Of a stretch of DNA of 64,000 nucleotides, positions 1-6,000 are shown one piece after another. The first letter of the stretch is position 1. Every line of letters begins with the position of its first letter. The position numbers were made by a program. Origin of the DNA: a candidate division FCPU426 bacterium (GTDB lineage Bacteria > Oederibacteriota > Muellerivitia > Muellerivitales > Muellerivitaceae); the NCBI GenBank assembly GCA_963847625.1, contig CAWKAR010000052.1, positions 1 to 64,000 on the forward strand, read 5' to 3'.

Positions 1-3000
1 AGTTCAATAACGAAGTGCAACACTTAGACCCGGCAGAACCCGGGGGTTATCCTAAGTGCTATGAAATCATCCTACAAGCATCTGTCGTTAGCCGAACGTG
101 AAGAAATTTCAGTTTGGAATGCTGAAGGCCTCTCCCTTCGGGAAATCGCACGCCGTCTGGGCCGTGATGTATCCAGCATTTCCCGAGAACTGAAGCGCAA
201 CGCCCCTCCTATACGATCTCGCCGCTACCTGCCCGCCAGAGCTCACATGCGTGCAGAACACCGAAACCGTCTTTCACGTACTCATTTAAGGCTTAAAAAT
301 CCTGAGATTCGCCGTTTAGTACTGCGAGAAATACCTCGTGGACTCTCGCCCGAGCAAATTGCCGGTTTTCTTCGCCGGGAGAAACCAAAACTTTCCGTTT
401 CCCATGAAGCCATCTATCAATTCATCTACTGCGAAGCTCGAAACCTCATTCCTCATCTAGCCCGGGCCCATCGAAAACGTTTGCGACGTTGGCACACTCA
501 AAAACATCGCAAAAGCCATATTCCTCAACGTACTCCCATTACCCAACGACCAGCTATCGTTGAAACAAGACAGCAATTCGGGCACTGGGAGGCCGACACC
601 ATCATCTCCCGGAAAAGCAAACCCTCACTTCTGGTTATGGTCGAGCGCAAAAGTCGTCTGGTGAAACTGGCTTGGCTACCTCAAAAATCAGCTTTCCACA
701 CTAGAGCCGCAATCAACCGTCGGTTGGTTCGGATTTCAAAAGGCCTCCGCCGTACCATCACATACGACAATGGCTCCGAAAACGTCGAACATCTCCAGGT
801 GAATCGTGTTTCAGGCACTCGTTCATTCTTTTGTTTGCCCTTCCACAGTTGGGAGAAAGGTTGTGTTGAAAATACTGCAGGTCTTGTTCGTCGCTTCTAT
901 CCCAAGAAAACGGATTTTGCTACTATAACCCCAGCGAATGTACGACGCGTGGAACGGATCCTAAACCATCGTCCTCGCAAGTGCCTTCGTTTCAAAACGC
1001 CGGAGCAGGTCTTTAGTCAAGGTGTTGCACTTACTGGTTGAATTCAGCAATATAAAAATTATGGATTTATATTAATAGTTATTGGCATCCCCCATTCGGT
1101 TACTAATCGATCTTTGATACCTACAGGCTCTTAGAGATTTTCCGTCTGATATGCGAATAGTGCTCCTAGTTCATACGGATTATCTGTTTCATAGACCTCA
1201 ACAATTTCATTTGCATATGGGTTGTCTATTACTCAAATTTGACGGTTCGCAAATCGTTGCATCCGGGCTTGGAAAAATATTATTTAGGAAATTCTAGGCG
1301 AAAAGTTCGCAAATCGCTGAATCCGGGGAGGCGATGCAGAAAGCCTTCCAGGCCAGCGAAGCCTTGAAAAGCCTGACCCAAGACATGAAGACATTCAACC
1401 TACAGGATTACCTGAACATCGAGGGAAGGTTTTCACTGGCGGATCTTAAGGAATTCGCTGTGGCGGCTCTTATCCGTTTGGGAGGTAGTGTTTTGCCGCA
1501 AGGGGTGTATATGAGTATCGTCTCCCCTAAATCCCTCCAGAAATTTCCAAATGTTTTGTCGAAATATGAATTAGCGACATTCGACCGGGAAGCAGCAATG
1601 CATAAAAAATCTGCGGAATTCCTGGGACTTGGTCATCCGTTGGTGGACGCCTTAATCGAGCATTTCCAACAAATGTCAATGAATGGCGATGTGGCGGTAT
1701 TGAATCATTCCTTGAGTGAAGCGAAATCTCACGCGATAGTAAGCACCCTTGTTTCAATTGATTTAGAAGGGGGCAAGCAATACAGGGAAATGAAACTTGT
1801 ACGAGTTGAAGGAACTGGTGACTCGCAGGTTTTGCCTGATGATTGGCTTGTCCTCCGGCTGAAAAAGTTGAAAGAGATTGTGAAAAATGGAACCTCTTCG
1901 GGATCGGAAATGGATTGGAAGCGGATAAGGGAATCCTATGAGGGGGCAATTGGCGCTATTTTAAGCCAAATGAAAGGAAACCTTGAACACCCGGTTGGTG
2001 CACGGGTAAGGCTATTGGGCATTGCGGAAGTTTCGTGAAAGTAAATTCTTTAAAAGTTCAAATATAAAGTGTAAACGAAGGAAAAGCGTTATGGATAAGT
2101 GGTTAGAAAAGATATTTGCCCTTTCTTTAGAAAAATTAGTTTTGATTGTTAGCATACTTTTAATAATTCTTTCATTTGATCCTGTTCATTATGCAATGAA
2201 GGAATGGACATTTAATTTAAAAACACAACCCAATCTGTATCTTTTTATCCCGGGAGGCCTTTTATTTATTTTGTTTTTTTTACTGCAAAAACGCCAACGT
2301 TTTCAAAAAGCTGTGATTGAAAAAGTTCGAGGCGGTTATAAATTAAAATTGGATTCGAATCATTTTATTCTTCTAGTTACAGGAAATATTGAAGAATTTA
2401 CGGGGAACGAACACGCTGCTGTTGTTCTACCGGCTAATACTTCATTTGATGATTTGTGTATACATGACAGTCGGAGTGCTTTGGGCAGTTTTTGCCTTAA
2501 GTATTTCCCGACAGGTATAGAACAAATTCAAAAGATAATTCGAGAAGCTGCAATTGAGGAATGCAAAATCGATCAAAAAGATTTTAAACACGCACCACTG
2601 GGTACTTCCGTGTTAATTAAAAATCCATTAGGTTCAGCGTTTCAAATAATTATTTGTGCGATTACAACCGTTGATCAGGAACGCGGCATTCAAGCTGATA
2701 CCTTGTCGTTAATATCTTCTGTAAAGCAAATATTTCAAAAAGCATCACAAAACCGAATCTCGTCACTTACGATGCCAGTTATTGGTACGGGACATGGGGG
2801 TATCGATTTTAAAACCGCACTTTCCATGCTATTGGTTCAATGTATGAATTCAATGCAACACGAAGGGGCACATCATGTGAGGGATGTCAAAGTTGTCGTT
2901 TATGATCCGGAAGGAAAAAAGAAAGAACTTGTAGAAAATGTTGTCCAAGCTGTCGGTCAATTAACATGTTTATAATAATTTTATAAGGAGAAAAAATATG

Positions 3001-6000
3001 ATTTTATACCACTACACATCCAAAGCGTCATTTGACGCCATAATTCGAACAGAAAAAATACAACCATCTGATCCATGGACCACAATGGATTCATCCTATG
3101 GAAGGGGGTGGTATTTTACTGATATGGCCCCTGATAAATGCAATGCGTGGACCGTTGCACATTGTTGGCGAAGTATTTCAGCATTTTCAAAGGTTGAATT
3201 CTATCTCAAATTCGACATTCCCGAAGATTTGCTCAAAAAATGTCGAGAACATGTTTATATGACCAATGCTTGGAATAACCGAATAAAGTATCTCGAAGGA
3301 AAAGAAACGCCAAAATGTTCAAAAGGTCCTTGCTTCATGTGTGATGTTATATCAAAAGTTAAGAGTTTTTTAGGTTTGTCATAATTGATTGAAAAACGAT
3401 GTTGCTGATTAAATAAATCCGATAAATGGTCTCGTAGCATATGAATAATAATTAATGAGTTAGAAAAGCGTGATTAAGCATGAAAGAACCGGGGCAATCA
3501 ATCGATACAATTGTGGTGCCGGCGAAAGAGGAAACATTTAAATCTGTGTTTTTAAGTGAAAAGCGCTGGTATGGAATAGGTATCAGGCATGATGTACTGC
3601 CACTTTTGAAATATATAGCTATTTACCGTTCTGCGCCTACTTCCTCGATAACTCATTGGGCCCCTATTGATTCCATAATAGATAGCAAAAGCGAAAAACG
3701 ATTCATTATAACAATCAAAGGGGATCCGCAAACTATCGGGCCGATAAGCAATAAAGAAAAATTCAATGGGAAGTTTGGTTTAATCATCGGGCCTCGATAT
3801 ACCAATTTAGATCTTCTGAAACACGCCAAGCATTTCGTCGAAGCGTGCCCCTAATAAGTTAAATCTAAGTTACAAATAAAATGGTTTCAGTTCGTGTTTT
3901 GAGGACGGGCTAATCATGCAAATTATTGCCAACGGAATAAATGGGCAATATCTACAAAATTTTTTATTGAGATCGCCTAAAGATTTAGAGTGGGTTAAAG
4001 CTGCTGTTGCCTATGCGAATGGTTCACCAGATTTGCTAAGGTTTTGTTCCGACAATAAAATCCCTTTGTTTTTTTGGGGTCGTGTTGATGATTCGTTTCC
4101 AGTTTCATCTAATATTTTAAAAAAGTTTTTGGAGCTGGGGCCTGGTTATGAATGTAAATTGATTCATGATTATTACCACCCAAAAGTTATTTGGTTTAGC
4201 GGCTTTGGCGCATATATTGGCTCTGCAAATCTCACAGATAGAAGTTGGATTAATAATATCGAATGTGGAATTTGGTTCACTCAGGGCGATCTTGAAAATC
4301 ACAATCTAATTACAGAGCTTGATAATTATTTTGATGAGTTGGACAAATATGCAGAGCCTCTTACAGATGAACTTTTTCAACGAATCTCTGCGTTGCAAAA
4401 TAAATATAGCAACTTGAGGAGCGAACTCAGCATTCAAAAGGCTCGTCTTGCGAATGATTTTTCAAACGATTTAAAACCAATCTTTAGTAAATCTTTCGAG
4501 GGTTTATCCCGTATTAGTTCCAGAAAAGAAGCAGGCGAACGAGCTAAGCAGAAGTTTATAGATGAATGGACCGAAACCCTACAACGTCTCAGACAAATAT
4601 CGGAAGAAATATCAAAAGACGAAAACCGACCTGAATGGATTCATCAAGATGTGCCTAAAGGTGTTCAAGTAGATCAATTTCTCCATGCGTTTTATTACAA
4701 AAATGTGAAACCTGCAAATCATTCATTACATGAGCAGTTTTACTTAAAAAATAAAAGCAATCCAGTTTCCGCTTTGAAAAAAGCTATTGAGTGGTGGAAG
4801 AATTCTGATCAAAACGAATTTTCAGAAGAAAAAGAATTTATTTATGAAAGGGCGCCTTTTTTACAAAAGATGCTTTCCAAAGAAAATATTACCCATTTAA
4901 ATGAAAAAGAATTCATCGAAGTATGTTTGCGTGTACATGCATTTATTACCGCATCACGACAAACAAGTAACGAGGAAGTGGGTCTTCCTGAATCAACTCA
5001 TTTAGGAATATTTGAGCGAGCAGAAAAAGTAGCAAGTTGGCTTTGGTCGCAAAAATCCGGAAATGGATCAAGTGCGACTCAAATTCTTAAATATGTTTTA
5101 TATAGTGATGTATCAAAAGTTATAACCGAACGAATTTGGGATGCGGTTTACACTAAGGAGTGGCATGTCCACCGACTTGGATTGAGTTGTATTGGAGAAA
5201 TAGTTGGTTGGGCGATGCCAACCCAATATCCACCCAGAAATGGCCGGACAAGTAAAGCATTACATGCATTGGGTTATAAAGTGAAGATATACAGCGAATA
5301 AACTAAAAAGGAGATAAAAATGCTTTACCCAAATAGTGAGAAAACTATATGTCCAGAATGTGGGAGCCCAGCCGCGATAATAAATTATTCAGGTTCAAAA
5401 GATTCTGGTTATCAAATCAAATATCGGTGTTCAAATACAAATTGTGAACGAAATGTAGATCCGAAAAAGTGTTTTCTATCAGAAAATTTTAAGAAAGAAA
5501 CTCTACCCGATATTGAATATGAATTTATTTTTAAAAAGCCCAAAACTAAGAAAGCTTAGAAGAAAATAAAATTCTCAACACTATTTAGGATAGACTTTTC
5601 GCCTGTGTAAAAATGTAAATAGGGGCCTGGACTCACGCACCTCAGCGTGAGGTGGTTAAAAATTCGTTACTATAGGTCTTTGACACAACCCCCATACTTT
5701 ATCCCGCGAAACCACTTTGATGTTCAACTAGGTATGGAAAAGCTGGCCAATAAGTCCGTTCGGTGGGGCCAATCAAATCCCGTTTTTTTCCCTGGGACGA
5801 CCGCAAATTATTTTTAAGGATTTTGGTACATCATAGAAATCTTTCGGGGAACATCCGCGGGCCTTTGAAAACCTCCAGATCGTGAATTGAGTCATTGCCC
5901 CACCCATCTTCTGATGTGATCCCGACCAAATGAAAATAATTAATTCCGATATACGAATTACACGTAGCATTTCCCGTACCGATCGGGGAAATACCAATAA

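Follow-up and report, generated by a model that had tools for sequence, protein, structure and literature searches.

The window, that is the whole stretch of 64,000 nucleotides analysed here (contig CAWKAR010000052.1 of a candidate division FCPU426 bacterium), carries near its start two adjacent genes, one for a membrane macrodomain protein and one for a small ADP-ribosyltransferase (ART) of the HYD1 type. Both open reading frames (2091-2975 and 2998-3384) lie where an earlier note on this DNA had placed them. The features of the locus are as follows.

1334..2038, + strand: neighbouring gene for a SNF2/RapA-like protein, C-terminal remnant (RapA_C E 5e-5; BrxHII weak)
2001..6000, no strand: low-GC island around the pair (GC 0.35-0.39 versus 0.519 for the genome)
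2077..2082, + strand: ribosome-binding-like site of the macrodomain gene, purine-rich, by direct sequence reading
2091..2975, + strand: membrane macrodomain gene, 294 aa
2112..2168, + strand: predicted transmembrane helix 1, residues ~8-26 (hydropathy; model helix 13-27)
2229..2285, + strand: predicted transmembrane helix 2, residues ~47-65 (hydropathy; model helix 49-69)
2985..2990, + strand: ribosome-binding-like site of the ART gene inside the 22-nt spacer, purine-rich, by direct sequence reading
2998..3384, + strand: stand-alone HYD1-type ART gene, 128 aa (Pfam E 4e-9, ART fold, column counts in 60 homologues)
3316..3384, + strand: Cys-rich tail and last helix of the ART (C107-x4-C112-x2-C115, with C48 upstream; putative zinc site)
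3916..5301, + strand: PLD-domain protein gene, neighbour outside the module (PLDc_2 E 4e-6; phrog_28026 E 5.5e-140)
15612-17823: split VirB4-like ORFs, 12-18 kb from the pair together with the integrase
21252-22361: integrase

The spacer of 22 nt between the two genes compares with -4 to 25 nt across 34 loci, and promoter and terminator scans remained at shuffle level (10 vs 14.6 and 3 vs 4.0, respectively). The PLD-type nuclease gene that had been described near the pair is present as the PLD-domain gene listed above and is absent from the gene clusters of the module, and the SNF2/RapA-like remnant has one tblastn match in the genome. An integrative element had been placed beside the pair; the integrase and VirB4-like ORFs exist, but at their distance of 12-18 kb the word is loose.

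The macrodomain spans about residues 82-291, after two N-terminal helices that hydropathy and the structure model (mean pLDDT 92.8; helices H13-27 and H49-69) concordantly predict to be transmembrane, as had been proposed. ThsA_Macro (E 5.1e-9, residues 107-270) and Macro (E 2.8e-7) both exceed the Pfam cut-offs, and PADLOC assigns ThsA models (E 2.7e-7 to 4e-5) and DarG (E 8.6e-5), which reproduces the Pfam and PADLOC matches given before, including the lack of a PADLOC model for the ART. The ThsA_Macro bit score is 36.6, versus 157.9 for a true ThsA. A profile search of the PDB aligned the whole domain with two ThsA chains only (9uuz and 8r66), the other 16 of 18 rows being partial, and the single membrane protein sequence retrieved only weak, partial macrodomain matches. 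All Atlas feature matches (30/30) fell inside ThsA_Macro sets, and the DarG profile reached 90% versus 48% for a single ThsA sequence, the two queries being of unequal depth. Structural comparison retrieved the macro fold (Z 16.6-20.2), and by this measure the domain is nearer to Af1521, OiMacroD and macroH2A (19-20) than to ThsA (16.6-17.2), which is tied with DarG (16.7). A strand-strand hairpin of the model (185-201) aligns with the ThsA segment following S194; the ThsA hairpin buries the distal ribose, according to PMC11204291.

Among full-length homologues, 104 of 108 have two helices (L042 and L043 show a single one), and L113, P114, N116, F119, C123, D126, G132 and H235 are invariant or nearly so in 120 homologues. 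The MacroD motifs Nx(6)GG[VLI]D and G[VIA][YF]G, taken from PMC8120803, each occur in 0/120 membrane macrodomains, as does the DarG motif [FL]PTK (0/120); among controls, the two MacroD motifs were recovered in 11/12 and 8/12 MacroD proteins (a set made up of 11 accessory genes and an unlinked copy in this genome) and the DarG motif in 7/7 DarG. The same source states that MacroD activity may persist without the Asp. The position of DarG K80, whose role is described in PMC5179494, is T193 here, and Lys occurs there in 0/120 homologues. The C-terminal toxin-binding domain of DarG is also absent, since the match is confined to positions 96-154 of the 338 in the model and the protein ends with its macrodomain. 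Similarly, the residues by which BaThsA contacts His-ADPR are mostly replaced (D100 is D in 4/120, N133 is N in 0/120 and R240 is R in 1/120), in a register read by hand off the alignment. The global profile alignment with MacroD was poor (probability 1-3%) and placed D121 close to the MacroD Asp; preference was given to a register that passes via ThsA and a helix with Pro140 at its end, as suggested by sequence rather than coordinates. The invariant C123, D126 and H235 could form an unfamiliar catalytic or metal site.

The second protein matches Tox-ART-HYD1 (PF15633) over residues 3-83 (E 4.2e-9; 37.4 bits versus a cut-off of 25). H5 is found in 57/60 homologues (3 gaps) and Y39 in 60/60, with D31, R83 and D/E84 as further conserved ART residues. 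The protein had been described as nothing but this domain; the domain match holds, but a conserved Cys-rich tail must be added to it. Indeed, C48, C107 and C115 occur in 60/60 homologues and C112 in 59/60 (one His instead), a pattern that suggests a probable zinc site. Foldseek placed TreTu in its top row with a weak E of 0.035, the wide structural list was filled with ART-fold proteins of middling Z (8.4 down to 3.8), and DarT structures reached only 4.6-5.1, under other ARTs. From fold and residues together, we infer an NAD+-dependent transferase activity. PADLOC, NCBIfam and a PDB sequence search gave no match for the ART. A C-terminal amphipathic helix was dropped as a candidate because its hydrophobic moment was not outstanding, and a complex prediction with soluble macrodomain, ART and zinc scored 0.02 against a mark of 0.32, with the controls not folded. 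One distant relative, P0131, carries Ntox10.

Related loci were collected ART-first. Of the 47 that include DNA upstream of the ART, 45 (39 of them distinct, in six named phyla) have a membrane macrodomain gene immediately before it, a pairing far above chance; L051, with a marginal match (E 1e-3), was counted only with the loci lacking upstream DNA. Macrodomain-first searches of overlapping sets of 401, 218, 68 and 351 genomes added hardly any independent cases: they returned the seed genomes, six weak matches of the MacroD type and L060, a remnant left by a deletion. A search of 99 genomes with the ThsA_Macro family was insensitive and missed the window's own gene. Purifying selection is apparent in 7/7 pairs (dN/dS about 0.06-0.23) and the distance matrices of the two proteins correlate (rho 0.45). 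In groups X1 and Y2 the ARTs are 62% identical and their macrodomain partners 31% identical; tree incongruence indicative of partner swapping was not significant (p-AU 0.07). On viral contigs neither the ART (0/85 candidate stretches) nor the macrodomain (0/17) was found, and neither protein matched on plasmids. Each of the 59 ART homologues (100-194 aa) either opens directly with the ART domain and a Met of its own or is a short fragment, fused forms numbered 0 among 3014 candidates of 341-2000 aa (a weak test), and Rhs or secretion families 0 among 93 locus proteins scanned.

Either gene can be lost by itself. Two ARTs of 43-50% identity share one cassette in L008/L009 and in L024, whose type L046 repeats, and these cassettes represent two independent lineages. 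The macrodomain gene is broken and the ART frame open in three events, namely a stop in L014, a 5' truncation in L017-L019 (identical over 700 nt) and the loss of the helices in L033, with ART core residues intact; these broken genes come from metagenome assemblies and may not be expressed. The ART of L033 also lacks the last Cys. Conversely, L048 has a truncated ART with an intact membrane macrodomain and MacroD (one contig), and in L060 the ART is gone along with the C-terminal half of the macrodomain. The HYD1 family had been reported from 0/98 genomes of the phylum; this does not hold, as eroded solo ART copies occur in 6/98 other genomes, from one event, with core residues lost and the Cys tail retained.

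A separate MacroD gene adjoins the cassette in 14/51 loci (11/39 distinct paired loci; 6/15 of those in which each flank extends for 600 nt or more) and is absent at the window locus. Its position varies, being upstream of, between or downstream of the pair. These accessory genes match Pfam Macro at E 1e-39 or better and have the MacroD motifs in the proportions of the control set above. PADLOC matches were obtained for 39/94 neighbours versus 6/50 control genes (Fisher p 2.7e-4), in a neighbour list that was hand-picked and includes housekeeping look-alikes. TIR genes lie directly upstream only in L002 and L020 (93 locus proteins scanned), and these two TIR proteins are unrelated to one another or to true ThsB (blastp E 0.2 or worse); none was found by Pfam among ten window proteins scanned.

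In type II Thoeris, a ThsB TIR protein makes a His-ADPR signal for the membrane macrodomain protein ThsA/ThsC. The present pair shares with it two N-terminal helices followed by a macrodomain in a protein of similar length, a defence context, extra paralogues of the signal writer (multiple ThsB genes are noted in 10.64898/2025.12.03.692087), N116 and T192 at the positions of BaThsA N115 and S194, and the lack of the MacroD Asp. On the contrary, an ART stands here in place of the TIR, a MacroD gene is optional, BaThsA D100, N133, I238 and R240 correspond to N99 (mostly E/K), L131, H235 and G237, C123 and D126 are specific to the family described here, and structural Z to ThsA is no higher than to other macrodomains. 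The myxobacterial YarT, a stand-alone HYD1-subclade ART whose reported toxicity to E. coli is relieved by the YbiA/NADAR partner encoded before it (PMC11125620), likewise lies directly downstream of a gene for ADP-ribose processing. The earlier claim of a first cellular role for HYD1 is therefore wrong. The activity of the YarT partner, a soluble NADAR hydrolase, has been demonstrated, whereas the membrane macrodomain lacks known catalytic motifs, and YarT is reported to lack extensions, while the ART described here has its Cys-rich tail. DarTG2 (DarT2 plus DarG) is also an operon of ART and macrodomain with a similar phosphate-binding loop and macro fold (Z 16.7 to 7omu), but here DarT sequence match, K80 equivalent and DarG C-terminal domain are lacking, membrane helices are present and the macrodomain gene comes first. 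The Rhs toxin tips Tre23 (also Pfam Tox-ART-HYD1) and TreTu share the His/Tyr core; the ART described here is not fused to Rhs and has neither secretion genes nor a small immunity gene among its neighbours. Finally, Panoptes (OptS-OptE) resembles the pair as a two-gene operon of a small nucleotide-using enzyme and a transmembrane receptor, but its enzyme and receptor folds are others, and for the present pair a guard logic would be hypothetical.

The pair had been read as a DarTG-like module. That it is dedicated, conserved, unrelated in sequence to DarT and set in defence-rich surroundings was borne out; an erasing macrodomain was not, given the missing MacroD motifs and K80 Lys, the ThsA effector architecture and the separate MacroD gene. 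The membrane macrodomain probably reads the ART product rather than erasing it. At about an even chance, we consider that the locus encodes a two-gene, Thoeris II-like anti-phage alarm in which the signal is written by the ART instead of a TIR, the membrane macrodomain serves as receptor and effector, and MacroD is an optional eraser. The ART would be silent until an infection cue, possibly sensed via its Cys4 (probable zinc) tail, and would then move ADP-ribose from NAD+ onto a small molecule, a residue or a nucleic-acid end. The product would be bound by the membrane macrodomain, the pocket of which appears to have diverged from one for His-ADPR (His235 is invariant, and Gly stands where ThsA has Arg240), upon which the protein may oligomerise and use its helices to harm the membrane or halt growth. 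In loci that have it, MacroD would clear leaky product and set the threshold. An O-linked product appears likeliest because the bonds that MacroD enzymes cleave include esters and phosphate esters (PMC8120803), and a protein-mark version is strained because ThsA pockets are reported not to bind ADP-ribosylated proteins. We advance more tentatively, as a possibility, the complete writer-reader-eraser immune circuit based on ADP-ribosylation: an ART of the PARP/diphtheria fold, its tail acting as a zinc sensor, would make a new, non-His-ADPR messenger on infection, the membrane macrodomain would read this and kill the cell, and MacroD would reset it.

Against the alarm, two HYD1 ARTs studied by experiment (Tre23 and YarT) are toxic alone, and the eroded solo ARTs are what would be expected if an unpartnered ART is toxic. 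The structural Z scores, the DarG profile score, the single helix of L042 and L043, the correlated distance matrices and the non-significant tree incongruence also weigh against it. A toxin-antitoxin pair is rather unlikely but a serious rival. Its ART would hit RNA, DNA or a translation factor (Tre23 modifies 23S rRNA), the macrodomain would neutralise it by new hydrolase chemistry (C123, D126, H235) or membrane sequestration, infection would free the toxin and MacroD would add repair. The gene order and ART subclade shared with YbiA-YarT, the DarG-like scores and the invariant polar residues at the pocket are consistent with this. However, the antitoxin would lack the MacroD/DarG motifs and the DarG C-terminal domain, a second, canonical hydrolase has been recruited in many loci, one macrodomain partner is common to two divergent ARTs, and ARTs with an intact core stay open where the macrodomain is broken. 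Quite improbable is a Panoptes-like decoy guard, in which a constant ART product would keep the membrane protein shut until it is freed by phage sponges, by macrodomains or by a loss of NAD+: the minimal synthase plus transmembrane effector of Panoptes (PMC12657218), the small ART without separate sensor domain and the joint loss in L060 agree with it, but L048 retains the membrane macrodomain and MacroD next to a truncated ART (one contig), and an adjacent eraser would oppose a standing inhibitory signal.

That the membrane protein is an ordinary type II Thoeris effector with its TIR gene elsewhere, the ART being a passenger or second independent toxin, is very improbable. The above-cut-off ThsA_Macro match and the TIR genes of L002 and L020 suggest it, against which stand the mutually unrelated and un-ThsB-like nature of these TIR proteins, the TIR-free scan of ten window proteins, the replaced His-ADPR contacts and the tight, near-complete linkage of the ART. 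The possibility raised earlier, that the pair is what is left of a polymorphic toxin cassette and its immunity gene, is largely refuted and can hardly be credited. It drew on a Pfam family defined on toxin tips (PMC3482391) and on the Ntox10 of P0131, but the homologues stand alone or are short fragments, fused forms (weak test) and Rhs/secretion families did not appear, selection is purifying, and the partner precedes the ART and differs from the Imm-My6CBD type given there for HYD1 tips.

Literature searches found no system of ART plus membrane macrodomain, although supplementary files or the 2015 comparative-genomics survey in which Burroughs and colleagues treated nucleotide-centred conflict systems could list the pair. 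In the literature searched, bacterial ARTs in defence or competition are described as the toxic end of a pathway, and immune signals of the ADP-ribose type as TIR products. If the ART feeds a ThsA-like membrane receptor, signal writers would be swappable across enzyme superfamilies and an undescribed ligand is predicted. Such a ligand lends itself to a direct test, since ThsA macrodomains have retained theirs through purification. The alarm, with its putative defence function, would be a new way to wire an antiviral response. Should the full circuit be true, the known immune signal synthases (TIR, CD-NTase, Cas10/mCpol and Pycsar cyclases) would be extended by ARTs, in a simple prokaryotic counterpart to the PARP-plus-macrodomain antiviral logic of animals. 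If the pair is instead a toxin-antitoxin system, its antitoxin would be a macrodomain bound to the membrane, and catalytic residues that differ from those of MacroD and DarG would be new chemistry too. In either case, PADLOC, having no model for the ART, would mislabel the system as an orphan ThsA.

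The pair consists of two adjacent open reading frames, separated by a gap of 22 nt:

2091-2975, + strand, membrane macrodomain ORF
2998-3384, + strand, HYD1-type ADP-ribosyltransferase (ART) ORF

The Pfam and PADLOC scores reported for both products in an earlier note were reproduced upon re-running. The two genes occupy an island of low GC content (0.355 and 0.372, vs 0.519 for the genome); an IS30 copy precedes them, together with a SNF2/RapA-like remnant, and a PLD-domain gene follows. The genome contains a single HYD1 match. The same note had placed an integrative element beside the pair; an integrase and split VirB4-like ORFs are indeed present, but 12-18 kb away. 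The VirB4-like ATPase (window:15612-17823), broken across two overlapping frames, the integrase (window:21252-22361) and two SpoVG-like ORFs (near 20250-20955) suggest a decaying integrative element. Directly after the integrase, a protein combining Schlafen/AlbA_2, HATPase_c_4 and HTH domains is encoded (window:22682-24235). The transposase at window:61-1041, which we take to be of the IS30 type, occurs in about 20 near-identical copies across the genome. The 124-aa ORF at window:3480-3854 had no match in Pfam, PADLOC, NCBIfam or PHROG, and presumably resembles the PUA/EVE-like domains found with GIY-YIG nucleases. The PLD-domain protein (window:3916-5301) matches phrog_28026 over its full length (E 5.5e-140, function unknown), with weak similarity to DrmC, and is possibly encoded by a further defence gene.

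Scans starting from the ART retrieved 10 genome and 41 metagenome loci (n = 51), four of them with less than 100 nt of upstream sequence. The membrane macrodomain gene was found upstream of the ART in 45 of the 47 loci with enough upstream DNA, the exceptions being L036 and L047; in L048, a gene for a canonical hydrolase-type macrodomain (MacroD) sits between the two. Once six duplicates were removed, 39 distinct paired loci remained, and spacers ranged from -4 to 25 nt (34 loci). Those paired loci whose host has a name belong to Thermodesulfobacteriota, Elusimicrobiota, Planctomycetota, Ignavibacteriota, Chloroflexota and Spirochaetota. Macrodomain-first genome searches, a weak reverse test, added one family member, a remnant, and 15 "longest contig" values, compared by eye and thus only a hint, were common to the ART and macrodomain match lists. 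Of 94 long neighbours hand-picked from 29 loci, 39 had PADLOC matches, to housekeeping look-alikes as well as to BREX, type I-III restriction-modification, Gabija, Shedu, AbiG and PD-T7-4, vs 6 of 50 other window genes. The module is real, rare, widely scattered and of defence type.

Individual loci present further associations. The three-gene cassette, the pair with MacroD, directly follows BREX pglX-pglZ-brxL (L004:652-6925), and in two loci mutually unrelated TIR-domain genes immediately precede the one for the membrane macrodomain (L002:3837-4913 and L020:412-1206). Another genome of the phylum encodes, amid type I restriction-modification genes, a canonical-looking type II Thoeris pair formed by ThsA (E 4e-46) and a TIR-like 184-aa gene (L055:890-2280, - strand).

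The ART belongs to a set of 60 proteins, query included, retained from 61 candidates (47-76% identity, 100-194 aa). A full-library search yielded 77 representatives, and the Tox-ART-HYD1 Pfam family was recognized in 61 of the 67 scanned (E 0.001 or better); fused forms were absent from 3014 candidates of 341-2000 aa, a weak test. The predicted structure (pLDDT 76.5) gave TreTu as the first Foldseek row (E 0.035) and middling Z scores of 8.4 to 3.8 against ART folds in a wide structural search. Among the 60 ARTs, H5 (57/60, with three gaps) and Y39 (60/60) lie on the first two strands, D31, R83 and H85 are near-invariant, and 56 sequences have D or E at position 84. In Tre23, the catalytic His and Tyr are likewise on the first two strands, a correspondence made by motif (PMC8661411). 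In the tail past the Pfam domain, C107 and C115 are invariant, and at position 112 a single sequence has His where the other 59 have Cys; together with the equally invariant C48, these residues probably form a zinc site. Five ART pairs exhibited dN/dS of ~0.06-0.17. A wider set (P0085, P0089, P0093, P0096-P0103 and others) comprises stand-alone HYD1-type proteins of 110-180 aa without the Cys tail.

Of 8000 candidates scored, 146 belong to the membrane macrodomain family at E 0.001 or better, and two helices were found in 104 of 108 full-length members; L042:914-1627 and L043:442-1158 present a single short N-terminal helix instead. Profiles aligned over the whole domain to ThsA chains only, and all 30 matches of Atlas features point to ThsA_Macro. 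Structure is less decisive, with Z of 19-20 against Af1521, OiMacroD and macroH2A, 16.6-17.2 against ThsA (189-194 residues aligned) and 16.7 against DarTG (172 aligned). Conservation was analyzed on the best 120 of the 146 members, and ThsA residues were mapped by hand count along the 9uuz alignment, those named in the His-ADPR preprint being placed at a constant offset. ThsA D100 corresponds to N99 of the window protein (column E 64, K 30, D 4 of 120), N133 to L131 (L, M or T only), S194 to T192 (T in 116), R240 to G237 (G in 118) and I238 to H235 (H in 118). The position of DarG K80 (T193; K80 from PMC5179494) is Lys in none of the 120, and the MacroD motifs, as given in PMC8120803, occur in none of them, most controls being positive. 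At the sequence level, the domain thus has neither the signatures of known hydrolases nor the contacts for His-ADPR, and this absence, together with its own invariant C123, D126 and H235, favours a predicted reader of a new ligand, a pattern also compatible with new chemistry. Across two macrodomain pairs, dN/dS was 0.16-0.23.

A canonical MacroD/YmdB-type gene adjoins 14 of the 51 loci; among the distinct paired loci it does so in 11 of 39, and in 6 of the 15 having at least 600 nt on each flank. Its position varies (upstream of the pair, between the two genes or downstream), and each of the two deep branches of the macrodomain tree includes loci with it. This adjacency is taken only as far above chance, because loci of kin do not count independently and the figure for chance uses an assumed gene frequency. 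The window's locus is without an adjacent copy; the only canonical MacroD of that genome is on a different contig, in surroundings that do not look like defence. The MacroD copy of L015 is broken, and in L060:1408-1953 (- strand) a deletion joined the N-terminal half of the membrane macrodomain to the MacroD C-terminal end and removed the ART.

On the tested features, the module falls outside type II Thoeris, DarTG and YarT-YbiA. It most likely works like type II Thoeris with the ART as writer; the fuller signalling scheme, to which we give an even chance, is that the ART would be a triggered writer of an ADP-ribose-type signal, the membrane macrodomain its receptor-effector and MacroD an optional eraser. 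The steps of this scheme, from trigger and acceptor to oligomerisation and killing, would follow type II Thoeris by analogy (PMC11204291; 10.64898/2026.06.04.730250). A toxin-antitoxin pair appears distinctly less probable and is supported chiefly by Tre23 and by YarT, a stand-alone HYD1 toxin whose antitoxin is an upstream NADAR protein, YbiA (PMC11125620). The publication of that pair removes the earlier claim of a first cellular role for HYD1. A guard resembling Panoptes seems improbable.

Natural variants, read from assembled DNA, include a broken macrodomain beside an open ART frame with intact core (L014, L017-L019 as one event, and L033), a truncated ART adjoining an intact macrodomain (L048) and an apparently intact ART start preceded by an unrelated gene (L047). 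Two ARTs share one cassette in L008/L009 (50% identical) and L024 (43%), the latter type being repeated in L046. A full-text literature search found no description of an ART and membrane macrodomain system, a mention in a survey or supplementary table being possible; the accessible portions of PMC9503650, PMC3482391, PMC12421852, 10.64898/2025.12.03.692087 and 10.64898/2025.12.08.692795 do not mention it.

A solo full-length ART copy is encoded in 6 of the 98 other genomes of the phylum, all six in the window's family, and the membrane macrodomain was absent from the five of these genomes searched, a search without positive control. Five solo sequences form one clade (SH-aLRT 99), in which core residues are lost and the four Cys retained; the other 42 sequences of the tree all keep H5, T7, D31, Y39, C48, C56, W57 and R83. 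The five loci inspected have housekeeping surroundings, and the copies are under purifying selection (dN ~0.09, dS 1.5 or saturated). They are a domesticated pseudo-ART in the window's own family, whose erosion as a single event fits either signalling or a toxin-antitoxin pair. Solo copies are located in L076-L081 (genomes G052, G051, G050, G049, G048 and G047, respectively) and at L036:3242-3625.
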